DNA of 62,268 nucleotides from Vulcanimicrobiota bacterium (GCA_050486105.1 JBJHCR010000002.1:1-62268); one strand, 5' to 3'; counted from the first letter of the stretch, positions 45,407-62,268 are shown. Notes: generated from the sequence alone by a model not told the origin. Numbers and translations: made by a program.

Positions 45407-48400
45407 ATGAGACGGTTTGAAGACATTGTGCGCGCGCACCCGGAGCTGCAGAGAATGACCCCGACCTCCGAAGACCTAGCTTGGATATCGCGGGGTAGAA
45501 GGCCCGCAGAGTTGATCGCTCGAGCCTGCTATCGATTTCATCAGCGGCCGTTCCTGACGCTGAATCCCGGGGATCCCGAGGGAGAGGTCCACACCTATGG
45601 ACAGTTTTGGTGCCGGGTCCGTAGGCTGATCAGCCTACTGAGAGACCGCGGCTGCACCGAGGGAACAATGATCGGGCTCTGTGGATTCGGCTGCCCCGAC
45701 TGGGCAGCTGCAGAGGTTGCGTGCCTCTGCCTCGGCGCCACCTCGGTTCCCCTAGATGGAGACCTGAGCGCTGACGACCTGGTAGCCATCCTAGACGAGA
45801 TGGATCTCTTGGTCTTGCTTTGCGAATCGGAGCCCTACGAGAAACTCAGGGCAAGGTTCGTCTCTCGTAGTCGGTCCGTGGACAGTCTTGTCCTGTTCTC
45901 AGCCTGCTCTAGTCCAACTGAGAATCAAAAATCGGCATGCTCTGCAGACTTGGTGAAAGAAGACCTGGACAGGGGGTTCGCTCCAGTGAATCCCGATCAG
46001 CTGTTCAGCGTGGTCTACACTTCCGGCAGCACCGGGCGGCCAAAAGGGGTCATGCTGACCTATGGACGCTGGGAACAAACCCTCCGCGATGCCTTGCATC
46101 GAACCCCGGCCCCGAGAGTGACCCTCGGGTATCTTCCTTTATGCCATATGGCCGGAAGAATCGATCTGTTCAATACCATGATGGCTGGAGGAGTCGTACA
46201 TCTCGTGGAGGCCAAGAACCGAGGTGATCTCTTAGGAGAACTTCAGAGGGCTCGCCCGACTCATCTGCTCCTGGTTCCCCGTCTGGCGGGACTGCTCTAT
46301 CAGCGCTTTCGAGACGAAATGAGACGACTGGGACACTCCGGGCCGTGGGATGCCCTTCTGAAACAGGTTGCTGTACGAAATGCTTGCCAGGACTTCCACC
46401 GCAGCAGTCTGGGAGGTAGGCTGGGAAATGTCACCACGGGCTCGGCTCCCACGCCCTTAGAGGTGAGTCAATTCTTGACCGAGGGCCTGGGGCTGCAGGT
46501 CACCGATCTCTATGGCTCCACCGAGGCGGGCCCCATCTGGACCGATGGCAAGGTGCACGCCTGGGTTGAGTATCGATTGCTCGACCGTCCAGAACTCGGA
46601 TACACCACCAAAGACCAACCTCATCCCAGAGGGGAACTCGCAGTGAAGTCCTCCCGAGTCACGAATGGTTATTACCAGAATGACGAGGCGAACTCGGATT
46701 TATTCCACGAAGGCTACCTACTGACTGGGGATATCGTGGAGGAGCGGGGCTCCCGGCAACTCAAGTGGCTCGATCGACGCTCGAACGTCCTGAGGCTGGC
46801 TCAAGGAGTCTTCGTTCAACTTTCTAGACTCGAAGCGACCTTTTTGGCTGGAAGTGGACTGATCGAGCAAATCTTTCTGTACGGAAGTCCGTGGCGTTCC
46901 TACCTCTTGGCAGTCGTCGTTCCCAGCCCCCTTCTGAAGGCGAGTACCGAAGATCCCGAGCTTCGACGCGACCAACTCAAAGCCGAATTGGCCCGTATTG
47001 GACAACAAGAGAACCTCAAGCCCTATGAAATTCCAAGGGACGTGCTGGAAGCCATCGAGCCTTTCTCTCCCCAGAACGAGTTGCTCAGCGCGGCCGGAAA
47101 ACCTCGGCATTCAAAGTTGAAGGAACGATACTCTGGACCATTGGAGGAGCTTTATCGGCGGCTCGAACGAGAGGCCCAAGGAGCTCGAGAACACCGAACG
47201 GAAGGACCCTTCGCCCAGGTCCTGCTGCAAGTTCTCGAAAGCATTCCGTCAAACTTTGCCGAGTTCAGCTTCGTCCATCTAGGTGGGGATTCTCTCGGCG
47301 CCCTACAGTTCGCTGAGCAGCTCTGGAGAGATCACGGCCTCAAGGTGACGGCGGCAGACCTCTTGAATCCCAACCTTCCTCTGGGCGAGCTCATGAGAGA
47401 ACTCAAGAACGATCTCGGTTCAATTTTGAGTAGGCTGCATGGCCAAGGAAACCGTGAGGCCCAGGCGTCCGATTTTGTCCGCCTGCTGGAACACTTTGCC
47501 GAATCGTCGACCCCTCGAACTGTCCCCAGACCGAGGGCCGTCCTAATGACCGGATCAACCGGGTTCCTGGGGAGGTTCACCGTGCTCGAGTTGGCCAAGA
47601 AACTGGGTCCAGAAGGTGAGGTCACCTGCCTGGTCCGGGCCAAGGACACCGAGACCGCCCTGCATCGACTGCAGACCAGCTTTCGTAGTCCCCAGGGGAG
47701 GCAAGCCTTTCAAAGCCTGCAACCTCGAGTACGCGTGTTGGTGGGAGATTTGACCCGAACCCAACTCGGGTTGTCTGCCGAGGACTACGAAGACCTCTCC
47801 CAGAGGATCGACTCGATAGTCCACGCCGGGGCCATGGTCAATCATGCCTTACCTTATGAGCAACTGGTTTTGCCCAATGTGGTGGGAACCGCGGAGATTG
47901 CTAGATTTGCCGCCCACGGGCGGCCCAAGGCCATCCATTTCGTCTCCACCGTAGCGGTGGGTCTGGGCTCTAGAGCCCGAGGAATACTTCGGGAATCGGA
48001 CCAGGCTCAGGACCTGTGGCCTTCTCGTCCCTTGGAGGCCTCCACCTACGCCCACGGATACGTGACCACCAAGTGGGCCGGCGAACTGCTTCTTGAGGCT
48101 TTCCAACGCCGCACCGGACTCCCGGTTACTATTTTGCGTAGTGGTCTTCTCCTGCCGGCTGCCCTTTGGCCCAAAGAATGCAATCATAGCGATGCACTGG
48201 CCCGCTTAATGGCAGGTGTCTGCAAGGTTCGATTGGTCCCATCGAGCCACCCGGATTCGACCCCCATAAATGGGTTGCCCGGAGACCTGGCTGGGATTTT
48301 CTTAGCCAGGTTGGCATGCCGTGAGACTCAAGGGTTCAAAACACTGCACCTCAGTTACCCTCTAGAGGGAATATCTGTGAGCACGCTGTTCGAGCGAGCC

Positions 48401-48667
48401 ACTGTCCTTTTCGACTGCGAGCCAAAGCGTACTGAGGAATTCTGGCCTTCGTATCGGCAACGTCTCATGGCTCTTGGGCCGGAGGAGCGCAGTAGATCAG
48501 CTCTGTCGATCCTGGACTCCTGGAGCCAAGCCCGTACCGACACTCTGATGGTCGAAAACTCCCGGTTGTGCGAACTGTGGACCCTGTTGGGACTAGCACC
48601 TATGGTGCTTGAGGAGGGCTACCTGGATCGCTGCCTGGCAACCTGGTCGACCTTATTGGACGATTGA
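45407..48667 (+). CDS. carboxylic-acid-reductase-like adenylation - thiolation - thioester-reductase (A-T-R) enzyme
   Basis: The AMP-binding core is YTSGSTGRPKGV. The carrier domain has the phosphopantetheine site FVHLGGDSLGALQF. The R domain has the Rossmann motif VLMTGSTGFLGRF and HGYVTTKWAGELLL (YxxxK). The protein is 1086 aa. Confidence 0.85.
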   Translation: MRRFEDIVRAHPELQRMTPTSEDLAWISRGRRPAELIARACYRFHQRPFLTLNPGDPEGEVHTYGQFWCRVRRLISLLRDRGCTEGTMIGLCGFGCPDWAAAEVACLCLGATSVPLDGDLSADDLVAILDEMDLLVLLCESEPYEKLRARFVSRSRSVDSLVLFSACSSPTENQKSACSADLVKEDLDRGFAPVNPDQLFSVVYTSGSTGRPKGVMLTYGRWEQTLRDALHRTPAPRVTLGYLPLCHMAGRIDLFNTMMAGGVVHLVEAKNRGDLLGELQRARPTHLLLVPRLAGLLYQRFRDEMRRLGHSGPWDALLKQVAVRNACQDFHRSSLGGRLGNVTTGSAPTPLEVSQFLTEGLGLQVTDLYGSTEAGPIWTDGKVHAWVEYRLLDRPELGYTTKDQPHPRGELAVKSSRVTNGYYQNDEANSDLFHEGYLLTGDIVEERGSRQLKWLDRRSNVLRLAQGVFVQLSRLEATFLAGSGLIEQIFLYGSPWRSYLLAVVVPSPLLKASTEDPELRRDQLKAELARIGQQENLKPYEIPRDVLEAIEPFSPQNELLSAAGKPRHSKLKERYSGPLEELYRRLEREAQGAREHRTEGPFAQVLLQVLESIPSNFAEFSFVHLGGDSLGALQFAEQLWRDHGLKVTAADLLNPNLPLGELMRELKNDLGSILSRLHGQGNREAQASDFVRLLEHFAESSTPRTVPRPRAVLMTGSTGFLGRFTVLELAKKLGPEGEVTCLVRAKDTETALHRLQTSFRSPQGRQAFQSLQPRVRVLVGDLTRTQLGLSAEDYEDLSQRIDSIVHAGAMVNHALPYEQLVLPNVVGTAEIARFAAHGRPKAIHFVSTVAVGLGSRARGILRESDQAQDLWPSRPLEASTYAHGYVTTKWAGELLLEAFQRRTGLPVTILRSGLLLPAALWPKECNHSDALARLMAGVCKVRLVPSSHPDSTPINGLPGDLAGIFLARLACRETQGFKTLHLSYPLEGISVSTLFERATVLFDCEPKRTEEFWPSYRQRLMALGPEERSRSALSILDSWSQARTDTLMVENSRLCELWTLLGLAPMVLEEGYLDRCLATWSTLLDD

Positions 48668-49867
48668 ATTAGCTTCCCAGGCTTGCTGTAGAGCCAGAGC
48701 GATGGATTCTGGTTGCCCATCCATTCCGTAGACACTGGCCGGGACGGGAGAGGCGGGAAGCTGTGGAGGAATAGTGGGAAGGGGGAGACGCACATTTCGG
48801 CTTTCCTCTCGCAGCAGGCCCCGAGGGTCCTTGCCTTGGCCTAGAGCCAGCAGGTCTTCTTCGAGCATCTGCCTGAGCAAGATCACTCCCCTGTCGCTTT
48901 CTCCCAGATGCTCCGAGGTCCGGTCAGCTATTCGACCTTGACTTAGCATGGCCACAAAGTCCTGATGCGAACCGCCTTGGCACTTCCAATCTCCGGAGTC
49001 CGATTCGGTGATCGGAGCGTACCAGTAGGGGATGCGAGCCTGCACAAAAGGCTGCTCCCCCGGGAGAGGGTGCAGCCACCAGGCCACCCTTAGAGTGGTT
49101 TCATCATCGATGGGAACGTTCCAATTGAAACTCTCGCCAACAAACAGACCGTTCGGCCAAAGACAAACCCGACCCACCTTCCAGAGGTCGTGGTCCTCAT
49201 CGGTGGTGGAGAGAACCCTACGATAAATGATGCCATACTCGAAGGGATCGAATCCGAGACGCAAGTGCTTGGGACCGTAGCCCTTCCCTTCTTGCTGAAG
49301 GCTCCAGTTTTGGTGGAGCCATTCGAAATGCACCGGATCGGCGCTGTTCTCTTGACACTGCAACCAATTGCAGGGGAGCACGGCAAAGGAAATGGAGACG
49401 AATCCTCGCTGAGTAAAAGCCTCCCAATCCCATAAACATGGCGCTGGCTCGGGGCCTAGGTAAGCCCACAATAGTCCGGCCTTAGCCTGCACAGGATAAG
49501 ATCGGGTCCGCACCTTTTCTCGAAAACGTCCTTGGGGACGGCAAGTGTCTTCGAACGGCTGCTCCAAGCATGCACCCTGGCGGTCAAAACACCAACCGTG
49601 ATAGCTGCAGCGGAGTCCGCGCTCTTCCACCCAGCCGTAAGCCAGACTGGCTCCCCTATGAGGGCAGGCCTCAGAAAGGAGACCATAGTGACCGCTCAAG
49701 TCGCGATAAAGAACCAAGTCTTCTCCAAATAGACGGATCCGACGAACGCTCTGCTCCTCAAACTCAGCTATTGCTGCGATGGGGTGCCAGTAGCGTCTGA
49801 GCAGTCCACCCATGGGGGATTTTCCGCAGATACGAGTCAGTCGGTGATTCTGATGAGTGTTGAGCAT
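48653..49867 (-). CDS. Rieske [2Fe-2S] non-haem-iron oxygenase, alpha-subunit-like
   Basis: The Rieske motif is CPHRGASL...CSYHGWCF (CxH-x17-CxxH). A candidate mononuclear iron site is DPVHFEWLH. The gene is convergent with the A-T-R gene, with a 15-nt 3' overlap. Confidence 0.8.
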   Translation of the reverse strand: MLNTHQNHRLTRICGKSPMGGLLRRYWHPIAAIAEFEEQSVRRIRLFGEDLVLYRDLSGHYGLLSEACPHRGASLAYGWVEERGLRCSYHGWCFDRQGACLEQPFEDTCRPQGRFREKVRTRSYPVQAKAGLLWAYLGPEPAPCLWDWEAFTQRGFVSISFAVLPCNWLQCQENSADPVHFEWLHQNWSLQQEGKGYGPKHLRLGFDPFEYGIIYRRVLSTTDEDHDLWKVGRVCLWPNGLFVGESFNWNVPIDDETTLRVAWWLHPLPGEQPFVQARIPYWYAPITESDSGDWKCQGGSHQDFVAMLSQGRIADRTSEHLGESDRGVILLRQMLEEDLLALGQGKDPRGLLREESRNVRLPLPTIPPQLPASPVPASVYGMDGQPESIALALQQAWEANSIVQ

Positions 49868-49997
49868 GAAGGTCCTCTGGCCAAACAGGATTCCTTGGCA
49901 AGCTCAGTTTCTCTTCCAAACCTTCCGCTTCCTACACTAATGTGCTTGCCGGCCGGACTCGGCAAAGGATCTCGAAAGTGGTCTCGAACCTTGGCCT

Positions 49998-51197
49998 ATG
50001 GAGGCTCGATTTCAACCCACCTGGGCTTGGTACAGCTACCGCGTTGCAGCTCAGATTTCAGCCTGGATCCTGTCAGCATCCGCTGTTCCTGAGAGGATCT
50101 TGGCACACCGCAGCCTGGGAACCGGTGAGATAACTTTCGCGCGCAGTGACACCGACCTCATCGTGGTGCTTCCTCGGGGGAATTGCTCGGGAGAGGCCCT
50201 GCTCAAGCTCTATGGAGCCTTGACCTGGGCCAGGAGATTCAACCCAACCCTGAGCCATGTGGAGGTCTTTGCTCCCGAAGAGTTGGTGAGATTTGCCAGC
50301 ATCGACACCGTTTGGGCTGCCTTAGAGCAACATTCAGCATGGCCATTGGTTGGACCGGACTTGCCCCTGCCTCCCGTACTCGTGAAGCCAGACGACGGAC
50401 TGCGTCGTTTCATCCTGTGGTGCGAACTCTTACTGGGCGCGGTTCTGGCTCGCAGACGGCCTCGCAATCTTCGTAAGATCGCCCTGGAGTGCTGGAATTT
50501 TTATGCTGTGGCTGAAGGTCTGTTGCCAGGTCCCTTCTCCCGACGTGAAACGATGGCAAGCCACCTCTGTGAGTTGCGTGGTCCACAGCTGGTGGATACC
50601 CTGCACAGACCCCAGGCTTGTGTTGATTTTGTCCTTGGGTTGGCCAACGAACTCCACGCTTCTCGTTTACCAAGCCTGAAAACCCTGAAAGTCCCCTACG
50701 TCTTCGAGTCCTTGGTTGCCCCCCACGGCATGGTCCGGCAGTTCATCGTCTCGCCGAAACCGGAATGGCCGCTTCCAAGGGCGCTTCCTCCGTGGCCCTT
50801 TTTGGTCACCCCGGAACTGCTGGACCTCTACTTGCACTATAAAAACGCCTATTTTGCTTGGAGCCTCCCCCGAGAGTTGCGGGACCTAGGGCTTCAACTT
50901 CCCCAGGTGAGCGATTTTGTGCGCGATGCCCGATATTACCTCTCTCCCCAGTTCCTTCGCTTTCCCGGCTTCACTGATCAACGACCCCTCCACCCGGAAG
51001 ATCGGCTAGACTGCGTCGCTTATGCCTTGCCTTATCTCAACTCAGGTATGCTCCCCCCTCCCAAGGCGGGACTGCCCAGACCCAGGCTCTCAGGCCGGAA
51101 AGCCATCTTGGAGTACTTCGAGCAAGATTACGATCGCGTCCTCGAACAGCAGCACGAACTCGACAGAGCGCTGGAGTGCTTGGACCTCTCCACGTAG
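49998..51197 (+). CDS. hypothetical protein with a Pol-beta-superfamily nucleotidyltransferase-like N-terminal motif
   Basis: HRSLGTGEITFARSDTDLIVVL resembles the G[ST]x9-13[DE]h[DE]h NTase signature. The remaining ~300 aa are helical and I do not recognise them. Confidence 0.4.
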   Translation: MEARFQPTWAWYSYRVAAQISAWILSASAVPERILAHRSLGTGEITFARSDTDLIVVLPRGNCSGEALLKLYGALTWARRFNPTLSHVEVFAPEELVRFASIDTVWAALEQHSAWPLVGPDLPLPPVLVKPDDGLRRFILWCELLLGAVLARRRPRNLRKIALECWNFYAVAEGLLPGPFSRRETMASHLCELRGPQLVDTLHRPQACVDFVLGLANELHASRLPSLKTLKVPYVFESLVAPHGMVRQFIVSPKPEWPLPRALPPWPFLVTPELLDLYLHYKNAYFAWSLPRELRDLGLQLPQVSDFVRDARYYLSPQFLRFPGFTDQRPLHPEDRLDCVAYALPYLNSGMLPPPKAGLPRPRLSGRKAILEYFEQDYDRVLEQQHELDRALECLDLST

Positions 51198-51283
51198 ATA
51201 AACCCTTCGCCGTCTGATATACTCCTACCAAGAGAAGTTTGATGCGCCAAGGCTCACTAGTCTTAGAGTGCTGAAAACCCAGG

Positions 51284-51709
51284 GTGAGCGTTATGGGAAG
51301 ACTCAGAAGTCGGCAGTGGGGACACAATCTCCTGGAGATGATCTTGGCGGTTGTCATTTTCTCCACCATTTCAGTATTTCTCTTAGGTATTTGGAACATG
51401 CACTACCAAGCCATGTCCAAATCCCGGGCGGTGCTGGTCGCTACCTACTTGGGAGAACAGGTGATGGAGGAATGCATCGCCGCTCGCTTCGACCTGGTCG
51501 ATACTCTCTATCCTCCCCCACCTGCGGTGCAGGAACTCGAAGTGACCAGTAGGACCCGAGCCGGAGAGCAAACGGTGATCTTCGAAGTGATGGTCTCGAT
51601 CACACCGAACGGAACCAGCGAGAAGTTTGTAGAGGTTGATGTCAGTTGGAATGGTGACACCGGAAGAAACACGGCCTCGTTTCATACCATCATCCATCAG
51701 AACGGCTAA
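51284..51709 (+). CDS. prepilin-type N-terminal domain protein (pseudopilin-like)
   Basis: ...RSRQWG|HNLLEMILAVVIFSTISVFLLGIW has Gly at -1, Glu at +5 and a hydrophobic helix. It starts at the GTG at 51284 (an alternative ATG is at 51293). The protein is 141 aa. Confidence 0.5.
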   Translation: MSVMGRLRSRQWGHNLLEMILAVVIFSTISVFLLGIWNMHYQAMSKSRAVLVATYLGEQVMEECIAARFDLVDTLYPPPPAVQELEVTSRTRAGEQTVIFEVMVSITPNGTSEKFVEVDVSWNGDTGRNTASFHTIIHQNG

Positions 51710-51728
51710 CCCATTGTCTAGGATCTCT

Positions 51729-52790
51729 GTGGGCAGAATCCCGATCTGGTTTTGTGCGCTCTTGCTTTTTGGCTTGGTCGGCTGCCTACCAACGGGAGAG
51801 GGAACAACCACCTTTGAATCAGCCAGGATTCCGATTCTGGGGGTCCACAATTTTGAGAGAGCCATCCAAGCCAACCAGAAAGTGCTTGTTCTTGATAATC
51901 AACCCGGAGAACTGATCTGGTTAACCGGCTTTACTGTCTCCCCGGAATCGTTGACCGAAGGTGACCAATTCTCCAACACTCAAGCACTGCTGGGAGCAAC
52001 CACCATAGGCTTTCAGCGATCTCGGCGACATGCGGAACTCCTTGGAGTTTCCTGGGCGCCCTACACAACCATTTTTGGGGTGGTCGGGGGGCATCACGCG
52101 ACCCAACTGCCCTCAGGTTTCGGCATTCCCATGTTCTCCAACGAGCCACTGCTCCTTCGAGCTTCCGTCATTAATCTCGACCCTTACTTTCCGGCAAGCC
52201 AGATTAAGCTCCAAGGAAACCTCTCCTTCGTCCGTCAGCGCGGTCTCGCCCACAAGATGAAGCCGCTACTCGCTCGCAGGCTTTCCTTGCTCTCGCCCTT
52301 ATCCCCGGCAGCACCCGTCTGGAATGAGCACACTTTTCATGGACCCATTCAGCCATTTCCGAAAGATCCCGAAGTTGAATATCAAGATGTCTTTTTCGAT
52401 CGCTTCGGACAGGCTTTCGGAAAATACCTGCCCGTCTCCAAGGAAGGGGGCACCTTTCGCGGCGATGTCACCAAATTGTTGGCCTTGAAGCCGGATTCTC
52501 AAGTTCATTTCGCGTCGGCCGTGGTTCACCCGGAGGTCGAGCGAATAAGCCTGATTCGCCAATCGGACGAGGTCAGACTCATCGAGCTCAAGGTACTCGG
52601 TCGTTCCTCCGATGGAAACGTCTCCGAAATGGCCACTTTTTCCAGTCCCGAAGGACTTGAACTCCACAAGGATGAGCGCTATTGGTTAGAAATCGAATTT
52701 CCGCCATCTTCAAGCCAAGAAGGAAGACGACTCTTTGCCGACTTGTTCGTCTATCTAGGAGACCCAGATTTTCAACCTCCAACCCGATGA
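51729..52790 (+). CDS. lipoprotein, function unknown
   Basis: The start was set at the GTG at 51729, with AGGA 5 nt upstream and 19 nt after the upstream stop. This gives VGRIPIWFCALLLFGLVGC with a lipobox (LVGC). The ORF-track start at 51636 overlaps the upstream gene. Confidence 0.5.
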   Translation: MGRIPIWFCALLLFGLVGCLPTGEGTTTFESARIPILGVHNFERAIQANQKVLVLDNQPGELIWLTGFTVSPESLTEGDQFSNTQALLGATTIGFQRSRRHAELLGVSWAPYTTIFGVVGGHHATQLPSGFGIPMFSNEPLLLRASVINLDPYFPASQIKLQGNLSFVRQRGLAHKMKPLLARRLSLLSPLSPAAPVWNEHTFHGPIQPFPKDPEVEYQDVFFDRFGQAFGKYLPVSKEGGTFRGDVTKLLALKPDSQVHFASAVVHPEVERISLIRQSDEVRLIELKVLGRSSDGNVSEMATFSSPEGLELHKDERYWLEIEFPPSSSQEGRRLFADLFVYLGDPDFQPPTR

Positions 52791-52859: not shown

Positions 52860-53102
52860 ATGAGTGACACAGGAGATAAGACCGAGTTGGCAAACTTTAT
52901 TGCGAGCCAACTTTCAGCCATGCTCGGCCAAGAGGTTTCCCCTGAGGCCAATTTTGCAGCTCTCGGGATGGACTCTTTGGACGCCGTCACCCTCATTGAT
53001 GCCCTGGCCGACCGTCTGGGAGAAGACGAACTTCCGGTAACCTTAGTGGTCGATTTTCCCACCGCCCAGGCCCTAGCGACTCACCTGACGGAGTGCCCGT
53101 AA
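52860..53102 (+). CDS. stand-alone acyl/peptidyl carrier protein
   Basis: 80 aa, with the phosphopantetheine attachment motif LGMDSLDAVTLIDAL. It lies immediately upstream of the MBOAT gene. Confidence 0.8.
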   Translation: MSDTGDKTELANFIASQLSAMLGQEVSPEANFAALGMDSLDAVTLIDALADRLGEDELPVTLVVDFPTAQALATHLTECP

Positions 53103-54598: not shown

Positions 54599-55625
54599 TG
54601 TTCCCTTCTGGAGTAAAGAAGGCTTCCCTTGGGCCGGAACTGCTGCGGTCTTGATTATTCTTGCCATAGAATGGGTCTTTTATCACCCCCTCTGGAGCGT
54701 TCGGGCCGGACGTCATCACGCCGACCGAATAGTGGCTGCGAAGGTCCACTATGTCCAGGAAACGCCGCCGGCCGATATGCTGCTGCTGGGTGACAGTTCG
54801 GTCAGCACTGCCCTAGACGCCGCCTATCTGAGCCGACGTTACCCGGGGGTGAATTTTGTCAATCTCGGATTGGTAGGATCTACCTCCATGGCTGGAACCT
54901 ACTTCATGGCGGCTCGCTATCTCGAGAACCACCCCCCACCTAAGGCTGCCTTTATCATGTTCAGCCCACTTACCCTAAACTATGATGTCGGCGAATTGAT
55001 CTGGAACCGTCGCCTAATGCGCTTCTTTCACCGACCTGCCGAAATCTTCGCGTACGCCCCCTTCTGTGGGCTCGATGCAGCCTGCCGAGCCATGCTTCAC
55101 AATCTGCTGCCAAGCAGTGAATGGAGCGATTTCTTCTGGAATTTTCCGAGGGAAGACCTCAAGACCTGGACCGATATCCAGACCTCGTGGACGGAAAATG
55201 GAGAGTTCTACCCACAGTTAGTGGCAACCCGAGGATTCACTCCTGTGACCGAAAACGAGCCCTTTCATCAGCGAGATTTCCGCTTGAGCGTGAGTCCGAT
55301 TAACCAACACTTTCTAGACCAGCTCATCAGGGAACTTCAAGGCCTGGAAGTGGAGGTCTACTTCGCCTTTCCCCCCTTGCCCGAAAGCCGGTACCAGTTG
55401 CTCCAAGCTGACCAACAGGCACTTCGGAGTTGGTCGGACTACCTCGATTCCCTTAAGACTCAAGGAGTGCTAGCATGGCCCATGCCTGCCTGGTTTCCCG
55501 ACAAGGATTTCGGCAGCCTCTACCACTTGAAGGAGAGTGCCACCCCAGCCTTCAATCAGCAGCACGCCGCCGGGATTCAAGACATCGTCGAAGGTTGGAT
55601 GGCCCCGGCTTCCGTTGAGGAATGA
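54567..55625 (+). CDS. membrane-anchored extracytoplasmic protein, tentatively DltD/AlgJ-type SGNH-like acyltransferase partner
   Basis: It has one N-terminal TM helix (WAGTAAVLIILAIEWVF) and a block-I-like motif, MLLLGDSSVSTALD. It sits directly downstream of, and overlapping, the MBOAT gene, as dltD and algJ do. The other SGNH blocks were not confidently identified. The start could be 54540 or 54567. Confidence 0.45.
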   Translation: MDSSSSTSNSDVPFWSKEGFPWAGTAAVLIILAIEWVFYHPLWSVRAGRHHADRIVAAKVHYVQETPPADMLLLGDSSVSTALDAAYLSRRYPGVNFVNLGLVGSTSMAGTYFMAARYLENHPPPKAAFIMFSPLTLNYDVGELIWNRRLMRFFHRPAEIFAYAPFCGLDAACRAMLHNLLPSSEWSDFFWNFPREDLKTWTDIQTSWTENGEFYPQLVATRGFTPVTENEPFHQRDFRLSVSPINQHFLDQLIRELQGLEVEVYFAFPPLPESRYQLLQADQQALRSWSDYLDSLKTQGVLAWPMPAWFPDKDFGSLYHLKESATPAFNQQHAAGIQDIVEGWMAPASVEE

Positions 55626-56272
55626 TAGAACTCCCAACGGAAGGGACCGCTCTCCAGGCGGTCTTCCAGATACAGCACCCGCACCCCATGAGACCTATTG
55701 GTGGCTGGTTGCCCATCGAGGAAAGGAGGCAGGGTGTAGCCGCGCTGCCGGCAGATCTGCTGCACCTGGTCCAGATTCTCCGAGCTCTTAAGCCCTAAGC
55801 CCAGGTGGGCCCCTAAGCCTTCAGCCACCCAACGGCGGCCGGTGTCAAACTCCACCTCGGGGAAGAAAACCTCTATCCCCCCTCGCCGCCCCGAAGCCAG
55901 AGTGGTCTCCACCTTCATCACCGTTACCCGAACCGGTTGGCCACCCAGGCGCCAACTCAATTCTCTGGCTAGGATTTCACTTTGAAAGTGCTGAGGATTC
56001 TCAAGAAACCCAGCCTCTTGGGCCAAAGCAGCCCAGACCGATGATGCCAAGTTAGAAGGGCCCAGGAAGCCAAAATGTTGGCAACCCGAGAGCTGTCCCA
56101 GAGCCCTCGGAGCAAACTCTTCCCCGACTACCCGATGCAAGACCGTTGGGATGTCGACCGTCTCCAACAGTCGGCGACACCGCTTTAAGACGGCCAAGAT
56201 CTGGGCTTGCTGATTCTCCACAGGGACCGCTAAGGATCGGACAGTTTGGCGAAACTCCCCCGGAAAAGTCAT
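55577..56272 (-). CDS. hypothetical protein (possible VOC/glyoxalase-fold)
   Basis: The start was set at the ATG at 56272, 1 nt after the upstream stop (56274..56276). The protein is 231 aa. The fold guess is weak. Confidence 0.4.
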   Translation of the reverse strand: MTFPGEFRQTVRSLAVPVENQQAQILAVLKRCRRLLETVDIPTVLHRVVGEEFAPRALGQLSGCQHFGFLGPSNLASSVWAALAQEAGFLENPQHFQSEILARELSWRLGGQPVRVTVMKVETTLASGRRGGIEVFFPEVEFDTGRRWVAEGLGAHLGLGLKSSENLDQVQQICRQRGYTLPPFLDGQPATNRSHGVRVLYLEDRLESGPFRWEFYHSSTEAGAIQPSTMS

Positions 56273-56273
56273 G

Positions 56274-57104
56274 CTAGTGCTCTTCCCCGAAAAGCACCCG
56301 GGCCGCATTTCGATACAAGTAGGAATCGAGAGATTCTGGAGACAGTTCGAGTTCGGCAGCCTCCTTCATGCAGCGCTCCATGGTGAGAAAAGGATAGTCG
56401 GTGGCGAACATCACCTTGCTCGAACCCCGACCGTTCATAAAGTCTAAGAGCCTGGATGGGAGAGCCTTGGGTGCGTAAGCCGAGGTCATTAAGTGCAGGT
56501 TCGGATGCTTTCCCAGAAGCCGGATCGCCAGCTCCCACCAGGGATCGGCCCCGTGAGCCATGATCACGGTGAGTTCGGGAAAAAATAAGCAGACGTCATC
56601 CAGATGAATGGGATCTTGACAGCGACCGGGAAGAGGTGGCCCAGGCAACCCACAGTTGAGGGAGATCGGCAAGCCGAGTTCCACGCATTTAGCGTAGATG
56701 GGGTAGTAGACCCGATCGTCAGGCGGGAGGTTGAAGAGGCAGGGAATGATCCGGGCTAGGCGGACACCGTGGTCTCGCACCACCCTTTCCAGGGCCCTCA
56801 CCGCTTTCATGCCTTGCCGGGGGTCTACCAAGGCCGAAAGGCCGAATCTTCCGGGGTTGAGCTCGAGAAACTTCAGCACCTTGGCTGAGGGCCGTTCGGC
56901 CCTGATGGTCAATAGGGCCCGTTCAACCGAGGACCGATCCATAGCCTGCAGCACTTCCTCATGGGTGTGCTGGCGAAAGAGTTCCTCCACCGGGCGGCCG
57001 AAGAGCTCGGCAGCCTGCCGCTGCCAATTGGTGGGGGTGGGGGGGAGTTCAACGTTAACCCAGGCATCAATGGCGCGCATACTAGGAATGTTTCCGTAGT
57101 CCAT
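56274..57104 (-). CDS. amidohydrolase_2-family metal-dependent hydrolase/decarboxylase (ACMSD/LigW-like)
   Basis: The pattern AIDAWVNV...CLFNLPPDD...VIMAHGADPWW...KVMFATDYPF is typical of the PF04909 TIM-barrel family. Confidence 0.7.
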   Translation of the reverse strand: MDYGNIPSMRAIDAWVNVELPPTPTNWQRQAAELFGRPVEELFRQHTHEEVLQAMDRSSVERALLTIRAERPSAKVLKFLELNPGRFGLSALVDPRQGMKAVRALERVVRDHGVRLARIIPCLFNLPPDDRVYYPIYAKCVELGLPISLNCGLPGPPLPGRCQDPIHLDDVCLFFPELTVIMAHGADPWWELAIRLLGKHPNLHLMTSAYAPKALPSRLLDFMNGRGSSKVMFATDYPFLTMERCMKEAAELELSPESLDSYLYRNAARVLFGEEH

Positions 57105-57150
57105 TAAGATATCCCTATGAGGGACGATGTTCTAAGTTGGGAGAGCTAAG

Positions 57151-58698
57151 GTGGCTCACTTCGGTTTCTGGAGTCTGGCCCAGCTAGCCCCAGATCGGGT
57201 GGCGGTGATCGACGAGGCCGGGCGTGAAGTGACCGCAAGAGAGCTTTTGGCGAGCTGCAACCAGTTGGCCCGAGCCCTGACGGAGCAAGGACTGGGCCCG
57301 GGATCGGTGGTGGCCTCGGCCTGTGGAAACCGTCTGCAAGTCCTGCAATTATGCCTAGCCGGCCTACAGGTCGGTTGGTACCTGGCGGTTCTCGACCCCA
57401 AGCTACCCCAGCCAGATATAGAGGCATTGCTGAACGAGCAGGGCGCCGAGTTCCTGCTGTCCGACCAACCGCAGCGGGCGTGGTCCCCGGCCCTGGGTGA
57501 ACGCCTAGGCGGTCGCCTGCTGCTCTTGGAGAACCCAGGGCGGTCCTGGCGAACCCTTTGCCAGGGGCACAGCTCGGAGACCCCGGCGAACCGACAGGCC
57601 GGGCAATTGCTGTTCTTCACCTCGGGAACCACCGGCCAGGCCAGGGCTATCAAGAGGTCCTTGAGCGGGCTTTCGCCGGAGGTCCTAGGACGGCAGGCGG
57701 CTCGGCATCTGCACACCGTCTGTGGCCTCACCCCACAATCCGGGGCGGTGCATCTGGTGGCCTCACCTTTGCATCACAGCGCCTCTCTGTTGTGGTGCCT
57801 GGACCAGCTTCACCTAGGCCACACCGTAGTGCTCGGGCTGCACGGGCCGGAGGAAAGCGAGCCGAAAGACTCGAATGCCAACAGTCGCAGCCCAGGATGG
57901 GATCCCCGTTCGGCCCTCGAGTTGATGTCGAAACACCGAGTGACCGCCACCTTGATGGTCCCCACCCACTTTGTCCGCCTCCTGGGCCTATCCCAAGAGG
58001 TCCGACAGAGCTTCGACCCCTCGAACCTGCGCCACGTGGTGCACACCGGAGCGACCTGCTCTATACCCGTAAAAAGGAGCATGTTGGACTGGTGGGGTCC
58101 GGTCCTCTACGAGGTTTACGGTGCAGCCGAGAGCCCGGGCACTCGAGTGGGGCCCGAAGAGTGGTTGCAGCATCCCGGCACCGTGGGTCGCTCCCACGGC
58201 CGAGTGCAGATCCTCCGGGGCGACGGCGCTTTGTGCCGGCCTGGTGAGGTGGGACGGGTGCTGCTGCGCTCGGGCCGCCGGGAGGGATTCGTGGAGGTCG
58301 GCGACTTAGGCTACTTGGAGCAGGATGATTATCTGTTCTTGGTGGGCCGGGCCGACGACACCATCATCACCGGAGGAGTAAACGTGCACCCCATCCCCGT
58401 CGAGGCGGTGCTGGGTTCTCACCCCGGGGTTTTGGAAGTGGCGGTCTACGGCGAGCCCGACCCAGAATGGGGGCAGCGGGTGGTGGCGGCGGTGGTCCCT
58501 CGACCGGGGCAAAACCTGTGTCTCAAAGAGCTGGAAGGCTTCGCTCGCGCCCACTTGAGCGGTCCTAAAAGACCCCGCAGCTACCACCTGGTGAACGACC
58601 TTCCTCGCACTGACCAGGGAAAACTGAATCGGGGCGATCTGGCTACTCATTTCGCTTCGGACCCACCCAGCGGTGGAGCGCCGGTAGCTCCCCGCTGA
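57151..58698 (+). CDS. ANL-superfamily acyl/aryl-CoA (or carrier-protein) ligase
   Basis: GTG start. Motifs present are FFTSGTTGQARAIKR (A3), YEVYGAAES (A5), GDLGYLEQDDYLFLVGRADDTIITGGVNVHP (A7/A8) and PRTDQGKLNR (A10 Lys). Confidence 0.85.
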   Translation: MAHFGFWSLAQLAPDRVAVIDEAGREVTARELLASCNQLARALTEQGLGPGSVVASACGNRLQVLQLCLAGLQVGWYLAVLDPKLPQPDIEALLNEQGAEFLLSDQPQRAWSPALGERLGGRLLLLENPGRSWRTLCQGHSSETPANRQAGQLLFFTSGTTGQARAIKRSLSGLSPEVLGRQAARHLHTVCGLTPQSGAVHLVASPLHHSASLLWCLDQLHLGHTVVLGLHGPEESEPKDSNANSRSPGWDPRSALELMSKHRVTATLMVPTHFVRLLGLSQEVRQSFDPSNLRHVVHTGATCSIPVKRSMLDWWGPVLYEVYGAAESPGTRVGPEEWLQHPGTVGRSHGRVQILRGDGALCRPGEVGRVLLRSGRREGFVEVGDLGYLEQDDYLFLVGRADDTIITGGVNVHPIPVEAVLGSHPGVLEVAVYGEPDPEWGQRVVAAVVPRPGQNLCLKELEGFARAHLSGPKRPRSYHLVNDLPRTDQGKLNRGDLATHFASDPPSGGAPVAPR

Positions 58699-60433
58699 GG
58701 TGGAGCTCCCGGGTGCGGGAGCGCTGCACCTTGCCGCTGGCGGTCTTGGGCAAGGCTCCCTTGGGCAACAAAATCACCTGGTGTAGAGCCAGCCCAAACT
58801 CCCCACCCACAGCTTCCCAGATTCCTCGGCTCAGCCTGGCAAGGACAGCCAGCTCCGGAGCTTCGGACCGGTCTTCGAACTCCATGATCTTGCCCACCTC
58901 GCAGACCAAGACCGGGCCGTCGTCGGTGGCAAAGGCTGCGCTGCAGCCGGGTCGGAGTTCGGCCAAAGCCTCTTCCACGGCAGTTTCGAGATCCTGAGGA
59001 TAGAAGTTCTGTCCTCGAACAATGATCAGGTCCTTCAGACGGCCGCAGACCGTCAAGGTGCCCTCGGGGCTCAGCCAGCCAAGATCCCCGGTGCGCAAAA
59101 ACGGCCCTTCCCCATCGGCTAAAAAGGCCGAAAAAGTCTCCAAAGTCTCCTTGGAACGATTCCAATACCCTTGACCCACGCTCTCTCCCCTGAGCCAGAT
59201 CTCCCCCACCTCCTGGGGGGAGCATCTGTGTCCGTGGGGGTCCACGATCAGCACCTCCTGTTGCCCCAAGGGGGCCCCGCAATCCACCAGGTCCAGCTGA
59301 TCGTCTTCCGAGCTGGGAGGCTGCACTCGATTCTGAGCTAGGGCCTGCCTGCTGACGGTGTGGTGGCGATAGCTAGAGTTGGTCTCCCCGCAAACCATGA
59401 CCGTGGCCTCGGCCAAGCCGTAGGCGGGCTTGATGGCCTCTCGGCGAAATCCCGAGGGGCCCAAGAGAGTTGCGAAGTTCTCCAGGGCCGAGAGCCGAAT
59501 CGGCTCGGCCGAGCAGAAAGCGATCTCAATCCTGGATAGGTCCAGTCCTTGAAGCTGTGAGGGTTGGACCTTACGGGCGGTCAAGGCAAAGCCGAAGTTG
59601 GGTGCTCCAATGACGGTCGCCTGAAATTGGGAGGCTGCCTGCAGCCAACGAAGGGGACGCTGCACGAACTGCAGAGGGTCCAAGAAGGCGCAAGAGCCAC
59701 CCATATGCATGGGTGACAGCATCCCTCGAATCAGGCCCATGTCGTGGTGCAGCGGCAGCCAATGGAGCATACGCATGTTCGACTGCCGGCCGTGGAACTC
59801 AGCCAACATGGATAGGTTGTGAAGCAGATTCCGGTGACTCAGCATCACCCCTCGGGGTTGGCGAGTGGAACCTGAGGTGTACTGCAGCAGAGCCAGCTCC
59901 TCGTTAGTCACCTTCGGTGGGGTCCAGGTTTCAGCCTCACCAGAGGTGTGCTCTAGCGAGGCGGCCAGGGACTGCAACTCCGCAGGGAGGGCTCTCAGGG
60001 TGCCGCTGTCGGTCAAGAGAATGGCAGCCTGGCAGTCTTCGACGACGCCTAGCAGTCGAGGCAGAGTGCGCCGAAGGCGACCGGCTTGGGGGGACGGGGC
60101 TGGCACCGCCACGAGGCCGGCGTAAAGACAGCCCCAGAAAGCCCTAACGAAGTCCAAAGGAGGGCCACAGGCGATCACCGCCCGGTCACCAGGCTGCAAA
60201 CCTCGGGCTTGCAGAGCAGCGGCCTGACCACGGGCCCAGCAATCGAGCTCGGCGTAGGTTAGAGACCCGGAGATTCTGTCCCCCACGAAAGCAAAAAAGC
60301 CGCGCTCGGGCGTGGCCGCAGCCACCCCGAGGGCCATCTCTACCAGGTTGGATCCGTAGGTCACTGTATGGAAGGTCCTCACAAGGATTCGATGCTGTCT
60401 AAATGCTCTTAGGATTTCAGACGAAAGGCCCAA
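58643..60433 (-). CDS. fatty acyl-AMP ligase (FAAL)-like adenylating enzyme
   Basis: The motifs LQYTSGSTRQPRGVMLSHRNLLHN, FLRTGDLGWLSPEGTLTVCGRLKDLIIVRGQNFYPQDLE and KTASGKVQR follow the FAAL/FadD32-type pattern. The start is uncertain: TTG at 60433, with alternative GTGs at 60382 and 60364. Confidence 0.8.
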   Translation of the reverse strand: MGLSSEILRAFRQHRILVRTFHTVTYGSNLVEMALGVAAATPERGFFAFVGDRISGSLTYAELDCWARGQAAALQARGLQPGDRAVIACGPPLDFVRAFWGCLYAGLVAVPAPSPQAGRLRRTLPRLLGVVEDCQAAILLTDSGTLRALPAELQSLAASLEHTSGEAETWTPPKVTNEELALLQYTSGSTRQPRGVMLSHRNLLHNLSMLAEFHGRQSNMRMLHWLPLHHDMGLIRGMLSPMHMGGSCAFLDPLQFVQRPLRWLQAASQFQATVIGAPNFGFALTARKVQPSQLQGLDLSRIEIAFCSAEPIRLSALENFATLLGPSGFRREAIKPAYGLAEATVMVCGETNSSYRHHTVSRQALAQNRVQPPSSEDDQLDLVDCGAPLGQQEVLIVDPHGHRCSPQEVGEIWLRGESVGQGYWNRSKETLETFSAFLADGEGPFLRTGDLGWLSPEGTLTVCGRLKDLIIVRGQNFYPQDLETAVEEALAELRPGCSAAFATDDGPVLVCEVGKIMEFEDRSEAPELAVLARLSRGIWEAVGGEFGLALHQVILLPKGALPKTASGKVQRSRTRELHLSGELPALHRWVGPKRNE

Positions 60434-60668
60434 GATGGCTGAGTGGTGCTGGGCGTAGTTCCGGTCAAGAATGAATCGTCTAGAAGTGCTCCTATCGCAA
60501 CGCGCTCCGAGCGACTAGTATTCGATCATACTTGAGTGAGGAGCAACGCAACGAGAATTGCACCTCTCCACCCCAACCCGCAAACTTAAGCTTGACAGAG
60601 CACTTAGCAACCTAAAGAGACTTTGAGGCGCATGGATGGATCTCTTCTAAGAGTCGAGAAAGTGAGAC
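60434..60668. promoter_or_regulatory. divergent intergenic region between the FAAL and GH3 genes
   Basis: A 235-bp gap between divergent starts. TTGACA is at 60592..60597, but the only -10-like hexamer (TAAAGA, 60613..60618) is 15 nt away, so no confident promoter call is made. Confidence 0.3.
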
Positions 60669-62267
60669 CATGGCTCGAAATCTGCTAGAGCGACTGGCAC
60701 ATCAGGCTCTGCGCGCCCGGGAGCGATTCCTAAAGGCAGTGCGCGAAGGCCGAGCTGAAGAGTTGCAGCAACACGCCTGGCGCCGCTGTATGGAGCCGAA
60801 CGCCGAGACCGAGTTCGGTCGAGAGCACGGGTTCTCAAAATTTGCCTCCTGGGACGACTATCGGGCTGCGGTCCCTATCCGCCCCTACGAGAACCTGGCC
60901 CCTTGGATCGAAAGAGCCGCTGCTGGGGTCTCGGGAGTGTTGACCGCTGAGGAGCCCATTCGCTTCTGGAAGACCACCGGCACCACCGCCGAACCCAAGA
61001 AAATCCCGGTGACCCCTAGCTCCAGCGCCCAAACCATGGAGGCCTTCCTGACCCTCTATGGCACTCAGCTCCACCATTTTCCGGAATTGGCCGAACGCCC
61101 GGACACCACTCTGGTGACCCACATCTCCCCGAAGCCGGTCCGAGAGTTTTTGGGCCCTAGCAGAGTCCCTTACTGCAGCACCACCGAATTCCCCACCGAA
61201 TCTCGCCCCGGTCAGGAAGACGCGGTGGCCCCCTGGCTGAAGGGCTTCACCTCGGTGGTGGAAGACGACGCCGAACGTCTCTATTACCTACTGTGCTCGG
61301 CCGCGACCCACGATCTTTATGCCGTAGCCTGCCTCCACCCCAGTCGATTTCTCACCGTGGTCGACACCCTTGAAAGCCAAGCTGAGCGCCTGATCGAAGA
61401 AGTGCGGCTAGGCACCGTATTGGGTCAGCCCCAACGCCGACCTGAGCCTGAACGCGCGCTAGAACTGAACCAGAGATTGCAGGTTCTAGGGCGCCTGAAA
61501 CCTAGAGACATCTGGCCCAACTTGCGCTTGCTCTGCAGTTGGAGCGGAAGCTATATCAAGCGTTACCGCCCCGCCATGGAAGACGATTACTGCAGCGGGT
61601 TCTTGCCCATGCCGTCCATCAGCAGCGAAGCCTTCTTGACCATGACGATGGACCCCGATCCCATCGCTCAACCTCTCAACCTCAAAGGCGGGTTCTTCGA
61701 GTTCCTACCCGAGGGGAGCAGCCCGAACAACGGGGAAACCAAGACCTACTTCGAACTAGAAGACGGGCAGAGGTACGAAGCGATCATCACCACCTTGGGC
61801 GGACTCTATCGATATTCCACCGCAGATCTCTTTCAAGTTTCGGGGCGCTGGCAAGGCTTGCCCCGACTAGAGTATGTCGGACGGCGCTCGGTGAGCGATC
61901 TCACCGGTGAGAAACTGGCAGAAGTTCAGGTGCAAAAAGCCCTGCAAACCATGGCGAGCGAGTTTGCCGTAGGTTTCGAGAACGCCCTGGTCTGCGCCTT
62001 GGAGCGAGATGCAGGCGAAGGAAAGCCAGGTTACGTCCTGGTGCTGGAAACAGCCCAAGAGACCGCCATCGAGGGCTTGGCTCAACGTCTCGACGAAGAG
62101 CTTCGAGCGATCAACTCTCGCTATCAACTCAAGCGAGGCTTTCAGGATTTGGCTCCCCTGGAGGTGAGATTGCTGACCCCGGGCTGTTTCCGGGAGCATC
62201 GGCGACGGCAGACGGCCCGGGGAACCCCGGCCGGACAGCTCAAGGATCAGGTGCTCTTCCCCCAAGG
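60669..62267 (+). CDS. GH3-family acyl-acid amido synthetase (3'-truncated by the window end)
   Basis: This gene is not in the ORF track because there is no stop before the window end. Manual translation from the ATG at 60669 gives 533 uninterrupted codons: MARNLLERLAHQALRARERFLKAV...FWKTTGTTAEPKKIPVT...GGLYRYSTADLFQV...LEYVGRRSVSDLTGEKL... These match the GH3 (PF03321) nucleotide-binding and hinge motifs. Confidence 0.8.
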
Positions 62268-62268
62268 C

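Follow-up and report, generated by a model that had tools for sequence, protein, structure and literature searches.

A predicted MBOAT-SGNH glycan O-acyltransferase pair of a known kind within a rare FAAL/ACP/ANL/GH3 gene cassette

Gene content of the region and its upstream neighbours

The last 17 kb (45407-62268) of the 62,268-nt window, by which we mean the whole stretch of DNA analysed, contain genes on alternating strands that make up at least six transcription units, rather than one operon. Pfam, NCBIfam and PDB searches found domains where the preliminary description had placed them, and its inventory was largely right: the gene types confirmed are a CAR-like A-T-R reductase, a Rieske oxygenase, an 80-aa acyl carrier protein (ACP), an MBOAT, an SGNH/DltD-like partner, an Amidohydro_2 enzyme, an ANL ligase, a FAAL-type ligase and a GH3 protein. 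A Pfam scan gave no match to a KS, AT or C domain in any ORF scanned between 45407 and 62268, which upholds the view that this is not a PKS/NRPS cluster. The intergenic distances also stand: the divergent genes at 56274-57104 and 57151-58698 are separated by a 46-nt gap, the latter and its convergent neighbour at 58643-60433 overlap by 56 nt, and the divergent FAAL and GH3 genes lie 236 nt apart.

The region opens with a gene (45407-48667, + strand) for a CAR-like carboxylic acid reductase of 1086 aa, in which Pfam AMP-binding, PP-binding and NAD_binding_4 domains are present in A-T-R architecture, and whose translation carries the motifs YTSGSTGRPKG, GGDSL and GSTGFLG. It scores 635 bits against the carboxylic acid reductase model NF041592 (cutoff 1300), and by this measure would not be an equivalog of that family. 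Convergent on it, with a 15-nt overlap, is a gene (48653-49867, - strand) for a Rieske non-heme iron oxygenase alpha subunit (404 aa; Pfam Rieske and LigXa_C), the top PDB match of which is the phthalate-dioxygenase-like 7fjl (168 bits). The 399-aa product of the next gene (49998-51197, +) is unassigned to a family: it had been called NTase-like, a label that finds no support in Pfam, NCBIfam or PDB sequence searches (all without a match), and its sole visible motif is a loose G-x-G...D-x-D. Two proteins described earlier simply as exported can be specified further. One (51284-51709, +; 141 aa) is pseudopilin-like, having a prepilin-type N-terminus (G|HNLLEMILAVVIF) and a weak match to the ComGE N-terminus (E=1.6e-4); the other (51636-52790, +; at most 384 aa, the start codon being uncertain) is a putative lipoprotein with the lipobox LVGC and without a Pfam match. 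A 94-aa ORF (51268-51552) showed neither a carrier-protein motif nor a family match in Pfam, NCBIfam and sequence inspection. There is no sign that the CAR-like, Rieske, 399-aa, pilin-like or lipoprotein genes are linked to either of the modules discussed below.

The ACP-to-GH3 genes and a syntenic relative

The free ACP (52860-53102, +) has its serine in GMDSLDAV, and its NCBIfam matches are to ACP and PKS-ACP models, the best being PKS/FAS ACPs. Two homologues were found among 5.8 billion proteins, and the closer of them (P0126, 61% identity), the only informative one, is encoded on a metagenome (JGI) contig where genes for an α/β-hydrolase (+) and the ACP (+) are followed by those for a 225-aa protein (-), an Amidohydro_2 protein of 270 aa (-), an AMP-binding+C protein of 505 aa (+), an AMP-binding protein of 528 aa (-) and a GH3 protein of 547 aa (+) and, 3' of the last, an SDR (+) and then an O-methyltransferase (+). 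Order, strands and sizes agree with those in the window, as does even the overlap of the convergent ligase genes, in a comparison with this one contig in which homology was judged by Pfam families and gene sizes. Because of the synteny around P0126, the window ACP is provisionally assigned to the FAAL/GH3 cassette. The ACP, 231-aa VOC, Amidohydro_2, ANL, FAAL and GH3 genes thus appear to be a genuinely conserved cluster, and the repetition of their order and strands argues against chance as the reason why three of the four adenylate-forming enzymes are encoded beside the ACP. On the P0126 contig, the α/β-hydrolase gene adjoins that of the ACP; its product is a possible O-acyltransferase, as in OlsI, in which an α/β-hydrolase fold serves this purpose (PMC12493201).

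The 231-aa protein (55577-56272, -), previously classed as unknown, is a VOC-fold metalloenzyme of methylmalonyl-CoA-epimerase/hydroxymandelate-synthase-like type. Its AF2 model (pLDDT 95) gave Foldseek matches to methylmalonyl-CoA epimerase (TM 0.64-0.66, target-normalised), hydroxymandelate synthase and HPPD, and H66, E134, H156 and E214, the His/Glu metal ligands of the paired beta-alpha-beta-beta-beta fold, are invariant. The family has 167 representatives; among its members P0234 is joined to an O-methyltransferase and P0265 to a GH3 protein (the latter by an apparent frameshift read-through of adjacent genes), so that these families are tied together in a way that again points away from chance. 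The adjacent gene (56274-57104, -) encodes a 276-aa Amidohydro_2 metal-dependent hydrolase or decarboxylase (Pfam, 121 bits; top PDB match the uncharacterised 3irs), and in the JGI contig its counterpart is likewise beside a gene of VOC size, that for the 225-aa protein.

Next comes an ANL-family acyl/aryl-CoA ligase (57151-58698, +; 515 aa; Pfam AMP-binding and AMP-binding_C), which is FadD4-like (280 bits), has FadD-type CoA ligases as its 25 best NCBIfam matches and matches bile-acid and 4-chlorobenzoate CoA ligases in the PDB. The fatty acyl-AMP ligase (FAAL; 58643-60433, -, with a start somewhere in 60337-60433) combines an AMP-binding domain with a DIP2-like C domain (PF23024). Although all of its NCBIfam scores fall under the curated cutoffs, it gives 360 bits with PRK05850, 354 with PRK09192 and 330 with FadD32, all stand-alone FAAL models, as against about 155 or less with most acyl-CoA-ligase models; PRK07768, named as a long-chain-fatty-acid--CoA ligase, scores within the FAAL range (336 bits), and the top match overall (PRK05691, 413 bits) is to the N-terminal adenylation region of a PKS/NRPS model. 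Its PDB matches are 7r7e-g (398 bits; deposited as 'polyketide synthase'), 3kxw and FadD32/23/28. FAALs with a stand-alone ACP are familiar as starter modules for cyanobacterial, myxobacterial and actinobacterial lipid products, but the region offers no KS, AT or C domain as recipient for the acyl-ACP, and a GH3 protein and an ANL ligase occupy the usual place of PKS/NRPS modules.

It might be supposed that the tailoring and activating genes are neighbours by chance, with catabolic or housekeeping roles in aromatic-acid or fatty-acid degradation or recycling. The Rieske protein does resemble phthalate-family dioxygenases and has a LigXa_C domain, LigW and other aromatic decarboxylases belong to the Amidohydro_2 family, and the likeness of the ANL ligase to 4-chlorobenzoate and FadD4-type CoA ligases would fit. 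However, a FAAL with a dedicated free ACP, and a GH3 protein, are anabolic signatures; synteny with SDR and O-methyltransferase genes, together with the joins of VOC-family proteins to O-methyltransferase and GH3, points to biosynthesis; there are no ring-cleavage, beta-oxidation or transporter genes; and the Rieske gene lies outside the block conserved in the syntenic relative. We regard such a catabolic explanation as very improbable.

The GH3 acyl-acid amido synthetase (60670-62268, +; 533 aa seen, the C-terminus being beyond the window) has the Pfam domains GH3, GH3_M and GH3_C, all above gathering thresholds, the motifs TTGTT, SISSE and LYRYSTAD, and full-length matches to plant GH3 structures; homologues occur inside Streptomyces PKS clusters (L092, L093). 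The only characterised bacterial GH3 is OlsH, which makes N-acyl-ornithine and is encoded in an operon with OlsG, a methyltransferase, and OlsI, the O-acyltransferase mentioned above, in the ornithine-lipid pathway of Singulisphaera acidiphila (PMC12493201). By analogy, the window cassette might determine an aminolipid, the GH3 enzyme N-acylating an amino acid, the FAAL and ACP giving the second acyl chain, the MBOAT pair here (the α/β-hydrolase in the relative) acting as O-acyltransferase, and methyltransferase and oxygenase steps decorating the head group. Fatty acids are FAAL substrates, a FAAL providing a fatty-acid-activating context, and the relative's contig resembles the ols genes in bringing GH3, methyltransferase and α/β-hydrolase together. 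On the other side, the window GH3 is only distantly related to OlsH (62 bits with model NF052613, cutoff 620), and the relative's methyltransferase is of the O-methyltransferase family; known ornithine-lipid pathways have no role for VOC, Amidohydro_2 and ANL enzymes, nor do the FAAL, ACP and SDR genes have counterparts in the Ols pathway; and the known acceptors of MBOAT-SGNH systems are glycans outside the membrane, not lipids. An aminolipid product of this kind seems to us distinctly unlikely.

The MBOAT and its anchored partner

The MBOAT O-acyltransferase (53147-54598, +; 483 aa; Pfam PF03062, 90 bits) ends in ...GQQFFYFQF, in which FFYFQF is a fused tyrosine acyl-shuttle motif of the PatA/AlgI type, and H285, H325, F478, Y480, F481 and F483 are invariant across 17 homologues. 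The gene overlaps by 32 nt that for its partner (54567-55625, +; 352 aa), a membrane-anchored SGNH/DltD-like protein with an N-terminal TM helix and a GDS motif, of which Ser77, like His320, is invariant in the alignment. This partner is very divergent (a word-indexed search found three relatives), with no Pfam match and no DxxH block identified, and its low-confidence AF2 model (pLDDT 60) gave Foldseek matches to GDSL/SGNH hydrolases and to DltD (6o93). Conserved His and a C-terminal Tyr hexapeptide in the MBOAT, followed by an overlapping gene whose product is SGNH-like, anchored at its N-terminus and equipped with a GDS serine, are features shared with PatA/PatB, AlgI/AlgJ-AlgX, WssH/WssI and PatA1/PatB1, from which the window differs in the divergence of its partner and in the ACP gene upstream, such systems being without one (PMC12148441).

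MBOAT and partner genes are adjacent in six related loci (L003, L005, L006, L089, L090, L091), and in two metagenome loci (L087, L088) the MBOAT is found with a more distant partner homologue. The neighbours of the pair in these eight loci are unrelated (in L091 they include PMT/GT4 glycosyltransferases and sulfotransferases), which is the behaviour of a two-gene cassette found in varied contexts, as in the MBOAT-SGNH systems. ACP and AMP-binding genes are absent from all eight. In the wider MBOAT family, no ACP gene adjoins that for the MBOAT in any of 80 genome loci, a weak ACP-like ORF being found 2.8-7 kb off in three of them and an AMP-binding gene in one.

Comparison with the Dlt system (DltA, DltC, DltB, DltX, DltD) is invited by a similar set of parts (adenylating enzyme, small carrier, MBOAT, anchored SGNH-fold protein), by DltB, which of all solved structures is nearest to the MBOAT, and by DltD, one of the structures that the partner's model matched in the fold search. 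The differences are considerable: the MBOAT scores 151.6 bits with the DltB model TIGR04091 (cutoff 375), the Tyr shuttle is fused to it instead of being on the DltX microprotein, the ACP is of PKS/FAS type and not DltC, its own synteny ties it to FAAL/GH3 genes, and the ANL ligase has no DltA model in its 25 top NCBIfam matches. DltB needs DltX and DltC, by contrast with carrier-independent MBOAT/SGNH pathways, where the MBOAT itself carries the fused shuttle motif and the donor is acyl-CoA (PMC12148441).

These observations bear on the earlier proposal that the whole region is one locus, its chemistry having the MBOAT as output. This would be an integrated Dlt-like system for a new acyl group: after activation by the FAAL, ANL, GH3 or CAR enzyme and tailoring, acids would be put on the ACP, from which the MBOAT and SGNH proteins would carry them over the inner membrane to a periplasmic or surface acceptor. 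Transfer from DltC to DltB is an established precedent, and only 44 nt separate the ACP gene from the MBOAT gene downstream of it on the same strand, while the 3' end of the partner gene overlaps the VOC gene; from this arrangement the pair is inside the conserved cassette, not beside it. In the relative, moreover, the α/β-hydrolase next to the ACP, given its OlsI-like fold, may fill an acyltransferase 'slot'. Against this, the syntenic relative is without the MBOAT pair; neither an ACP nor an adenylating enzyme is encoded next to the pair in the eight related loci or the MBOAT in the 80 of the wider family; a fused Tyr motif, as in enzymes of the acyl-CoA type, is present in the MBOAT, whose score falls below the DltB cutoff; the DSLD region of the ACP is identical in homologues with no MBOAT nearby; and the two halves are unlike in GC content, which is 0.60-0.65 for the ANL (0.649), FAAL and GH3 genes and 0.54-0.55 for the MBOAT pair (the window's reference genes have a mean of 0.553 +/- 0.020). 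We therefore retain from the one-locus proposal the conserved ACP/VOC/Amidohydro_2/ANL/FAAL/GH3 cluster, for which the search for conserved synteny was positive in the one relative, and not the MBOAT as its output, the pair being absent there. An integrated system is in our estimation unlikely.

Two modules and their possible roles

It seems fairly probable that the 17-kb region is a mosaic, consisting of two independently conserved modules and unlinked neighbours. What the data show directly are the identities of the genes, the separate synteny of each module, the acyl-shuttle motif and the folds; the substrates, the product, acyl-CoA as donor and which way the rearrangement went are inferred. 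The first module, a rare cytoplasmic biosynthetic cassette, would comprise the ACP gene (52860-53102) and the genes from 55577 to past the end of the window, where, by analogy with the syntenic relative, SDR and O-methyltransferase genes probably come next after 62268. Its FAAL would adenylate a fatty or other acyl acid for loading on the free ACP, and a second acid would be converted to a CoA thioester by the ANL ligase; the VOC metalloenzyme (by isomerisation or oxygenation) and the Amidohydro_2 enzyme (by decarboxylation or hydrolysis) would carry out tailoring, and the GH3 enzyme, with ATP, would condense a carboxylate with an amine or amino acid.

The second module (53147-55625), situated in this genome between the ACP and VOC genes of the first, would be a two-gene cassette of PatA/AlgI type, encoding the MBOAT and its anchored SGNH-like partner. 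In it an acyl group, in all likelihood an acetyl group donated by acyl-CoA, would form acyl-Tyr on the C-terminal FFYFQF of the MBOAT and then be passed to the serine of the partner for O-acylation of an extracytoplasmic glycan. CoA and ACP both have a phosphopantetheine arm, and DltB is an MBOAT that accepts a carrier-protein donor; that the MBOAT has functionally captured the ACP is possible, if rather doubtful. The embedded position of the pair would suit functional recruitment, and the pair could be a functional replacement for the α/β-hydrolase of the relative.

Our verdict is that the MBOAT pair represents a known kind of MBOAT-SGNH glycan O-acyltransferase cassette, lying inside a rare, uncharacterised FAAL/ACP/ANL/GH3/VOC/amidohydrolase cassette, which is likely to make a lipid or small molecule of a tailored N-acyl-amino-acid type.

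Gene content of the locus and its surroundings

The locus at 45407–62268, proposed in the preliminary description to be one surface-acylation system, is best explained as a mosaic of two modules, a reading that we consider probable, if well short of certain. Module A comprises an acyl carrier protein (ACP) gene and the biosynthetic genes from 55577 onwards, and Module B, lying between them, an MBOAT with its anchored partner. ORF listing and family scans confirmed nearly all of the genes originally listed, but several labels needed correction. The locus opens with a CAR-like enzyme (45407–48667, + strand; AMP-binding, PP-binding and NAD_binding_4 domains), whose 635 bits on the carboxylic-acid-reductase model fall short of the 1300-bit cutoff, and a Rieske oxygenase with a LigXa_C domain (48653–49867, −), whose best solved relatives are phthalate-dioxygenase-like. 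The 80-aa carrier protein (52860–53102, +; motif GMDSLDAV) is followed by the MBOAT (53147–54598, +), recognized by family scan, and by its partner (54567–55625, +), which has an N-terminal transmembrane helix. Beyond a gene for a 231-aa protein (55577–56272) come an Amidohydro_2 enzyme (56274–57104, −; family scan), an ANL ligase (57151–58698, +) most closely matching FadD4-like, bile-acid and 4-chlorobenzoate CoA ligases, a FAAL (58643–60433, −), for which FAAL models rank top and 7r7e-g, 3kxw and FadD32/23/28 are the best structural matches, and a GH3 protein (60670–62268, +) with three Pfam domains and full-length alignment to plant GH3 structures.

The 'NTase-like' label of a 399-aa protein finds support in no library, sequence searches (including Pfam and PDB) giving no significant match. 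The two supposedly exported proteins proved to be of different kinds: one, of 141 aa, has an N-terminus of the prepilin cleavage/methylation type (51284–51709; G↓HNLLEMILAVVIF), and the other, overlapping it, is a putative lipoprotein (51636–52790; lipobox LVGC). The two genes immediately precede that of the ACP, all on one strand, and neither product has a homologue in the loci retrieved for comparison. For the CAR-like, Rieske, 399-aa, pilin-like and lipoprotein genes, no link to either module emerged. A 94-aa ORF (51268–51552) was considered as a carrier protein and rejected. As first described, KS, AT and C domains are all absent, which excludes a PKS/NRPS cluster. The genes, on alternating strands, make up at least six transcription units; promoter and terminator counts in a regulatory scan were at or below shuffle expectation. 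There was no PPTase gene among the window ORFs scanned, and searches of the 62-kb window for tRNA genes and, at gathering threshold, for Rfam families were negative.

Elsewhere in the window, purine/urate catabolism genes form a run at 28806–32294 (Amidohydro_1, 28806–30119; OHCU decarboxylase, 30137–30688; and a membrane urate oxidase containing Urate_ox_N, 31089–32294). At 3355–8675, a GT4 glycosyltransferase gene precedes two tandem glutamine-dependent asparagine synthase paralogues, an arrangement typical of exopolysaccharide loci, and the segment at 21730–27684 encodes a GT2 enzyme as well as long TPR proteins. An 801-aa protein (42078–44483) is weakly similar to SomB-type porins and, near its N-terminus, matches the SLH domain weakly (below the Pfam threshold), hinting at a Cyanobacteriota-like or similar diderm whose outer membrane is SLH-anchored. 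Many large ORFs (e.g. 826–2406, 9789–11297 and 14337–15737) have no Pfam match, consistent with a poorly sampled lineage.

The carrier-protein cassette and its metagenomic relative

Module A is a rare, conserved and uncharacterised cytoplasmic biosynthetic cassette. Among 5.8 billion proteins, only two homologues of the ACP were found, the better of which (P0126, 61% identity) is encoded on a 13.7-kb JGI metagenome contig (metagenome 3300056388). The first half of this contig encodes a sulfotransferase (+), an a/b-hydrolase (+), the ACP (+), a 225-aa unknown (−) and a 270-aa Amidohydro_2 protein (−), and the second half a 505-aa AMP-binding plus AMP-binding_C protein (+), a 528-aa AMP-binding protein (−), a 547-aa GH3 protein (+), an SDR (+) and an O-methyltransferase (+). 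Judged by Pfam families and gene sizes, this single syntenic relative agrees with the window in order, strand pattern, gene sizes and the convergent overlap of the ligase genes, the sole difference being that it has no MBOAT pair between the ACP and 225/231-aa genes. Here, too, SDR and O-methyltransferase genes probably follow Module A beyond the window end. Exact-protein look-ups aimed at sequence past 62268 matched only a 5.8-kb Logan contig, itself contained in the window, and two alternative start codons of the FAAL gave no match. The a/b-hydrolase gene of the JGI contig stands in the neighbourhood held by the MBOAT pair in the window, and the contig breaks off within a gene whose product is at least 996 aa long.

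The 231-aa protein had no significant match in PDB or Pfam by sequence, and its fold was resolved by structure prediction: the confident AF2 model (pLDDT 95) shows a VOC fold, with methylmalonyl-CoA epimerase and hydroxymandelate synthase/HPPD as the nearest structures. Exhaustive HMMER searching gave a small family of 167 representatives with four invariant residues (H66, E134, H156 and E214); tblastn against plasmids gave no matches. Two relatives link this family to the O-methyltransferase and GH3 families that adjoin it in the JGI contig. In P0234 (577 aa), which looks like a genuine fusion, the VOC domain is joined to an O-methyltransferase, while in P0265 (687 aa) GH3 N and M domains are joined to a VOC domain via an Arg/Ala-rich stretch. 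As this stretch resembles out-of-frame (frameshift) read-through, P0265 probably represents two adjacent genes.

The ANL, FAAL and GH3 genes (57151–62268) have GC contents of 0.60–0.65 and GC3 of 0.69–0.74, compared with 0.553 ± 0.020 and 0.622 ± 0.043 for 19 reference genes of the window, suggesting that their origin is different or more recent; the MBOAT, partner and ACP genes have GC contents of 0.54–0.56.

Judged by their families, the FAAL would put an acyl chain onto the ACP, the ANL ligase would form a CoA thioester, the VOC and amidohydrolase enzymes would tailor intermediates, and the GH3 enzyme would couple an amine or amino acid through an amide bond, as OlsH, likewise a GH3 enzyme, does with ornithine (PMC12493201). 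That the product is actually an aminolipid of an OlsH-like pathway seems improbable to us, the window GH3 scoring 62 bits on the OlsH model against a cutoff of 620. Still less probable is a catabolic role for the tailoring and activating genes, against which the combination of FAAL, ACP, GH3 and O-methyltransferase counts. FAAL-primed biosynthetic clusters usually contain PKS/NRPS modules, whereas Module A has a GH3 amide synthetase in their place, and the FAAL/ACP/ANL/GH3/VOC/amidohydrolase cassette is a new variant of such clusters.

GH3 homologues c. 31% identical to that of the window occur in Streptomyces type I PKS clusters. On a plasmid of Streptomyces sp. SGAir0924 (L092), the GH3 gene (11917–13587) has as neighbours genes for a P450, an aminotransferase, a dehydrogenase, an F420 oxidoreductase, a FAH-family protein and ThrRS, a layout that we take to resemble the borrelidin cluster; in the other cluster (L093; features at 12001–13530 and 21849–25532), GH3 lies c. 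8 kb from a FAAL-containing megasynthase.

The MBOAT and its partner

The MBOAT belongs to a very large family (c. 47% identity to thousands of proteins annotated as AlgI or 'DltB'). Its partner, in contrast, is rare, with three homologues among 5.8 billion proteins in a word-indexed search. The partner sequence gave no significant match in PDB or Pfam, so an AF2 model was used instead; this low-confidence model (pLDDT 60) resembles GDSL/SGNH hydrolases and DltD, and the GDS serine and a C-terminal histidine are both invariant in the alignment. The MBOAT ends in FFYFQF, with F478, Y480, F481 and F483 invariant across 17 homologues. Such a C-terminal hexapeptide is an acyl-shuttle motif, in which the MBOAT acylates the tyrosine and the SGNH partner receives the acyl group, whereas DltB needs a separate DltX peptide and DltC (PMC12148441). 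The window MBOAT, with the Tyr motif fused at its own C-terminus, scores 152 bits on the DltB model (cutoff 375), and a true Dlt system was rejected, three defining features failing. The pair is instead a new, divergent member of the PatA/AlgI-type MBOAT–SGNH kind. Most likely, it acts on an extracytoplasmic glycan, the predicted acceptor, which would be O-acylated from acyl-CoA, the predicted donor, via an acyl-Tyr480 intermediate.

As in the window, adjacent, overlapping genes for the MBOAT and partner were found in the six loci with the closest homologues (L003, L005, L006, L089, L090 and L091; L005 is a short contig holding only the MBOAT 3′ end), and in two metagenomic loci (L087 and L088) the pair recurs, its partner being more distant; a metagenome scan with the partner profile gave two weak loci. 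The neighbours of the pair vary; those in L091 are sulfotransferases and glycosyltransferases of the PMT and GT4 types, which places the pair in a context of glycan modification. These eight loci have no other gene in common with the window, and none has an ACP or AMP-binding gene. A wider set of at least 80 genome loci from an MBOAT profile scan (mostly Bacteroidota and Planctomycetota, 37–54% identity) excludes the window's own lineage and the 57–61% clade and served only as a negative control: among the 80 loci listed, no ACP adjoined the MBOAT, weak ACP-like ORFs lay 2.8–7 kb from it in three, and one had an AMP-binding gene. MBOAT–SGNH cassettes are known for lateral movement (reference 63, as cited in PMC12148441). 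Around the window pair, a search for insertion scars gave only short, chance-level repeats.

Two modules or a relay

The MBOAT pair is embedded in the cassette, 44 nt downstream of the ACP gene. This position, together with the precedent set by DltB for an MBOAT using a carrier-bound donor, argues for the originally proposed single system with an ACP-fed MBOAT, as does the a/b-hydrolase (the fold of the O-acyltransferase OlsI) beside the ACP of the JGI relative, since the MBOAT pair may, by analogy, be a non-orthologous replacement of such an O-acyltransferase. Given the distribution of the pair, we nevertheless regard this integrated relay as rather unlikely. The more specific idea that a PatA/AlgI-type MBOAT with fused Tyr shuttle was captured by the FAAL/ACP/GH3 cassette, an ACP-tethered, tailored acyl group replacing acetyl-CoA, is similarly doubtful. 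If it were true, this would be the first carrier-protein-dependent MBOAT–SGNH system outside Dlt, in which the acceptor of an unusual fatty or amino-acyl-type group would be a surface glycan or a lipid of the outer leaflet, and carrier-protein-fed MBOAT acylation would extend beyond D-alanylation. Our search of the available literature gave no paper joining MBOAT, carrier protein and FAAL. As it is, the locus cautions that same-strand adjacency of ACP and MBOAT genes is insufficient to infer a Dlt-like relay.

Under the preferred two-module reading, what emerges is a pathway comprising a FAAL, a free ACP, a CoA ligase, a GH3 enzyme, a VOC protein and an amidohydrolase that operates without PKS or NRPS machinery. 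To our knowledge, OlsH is the only bacterial GH3 protein with a known function, and because of this the cassette offers a tractable second case, whose product may belong to a new class of acyl-amino-acid lipids or metabolites.
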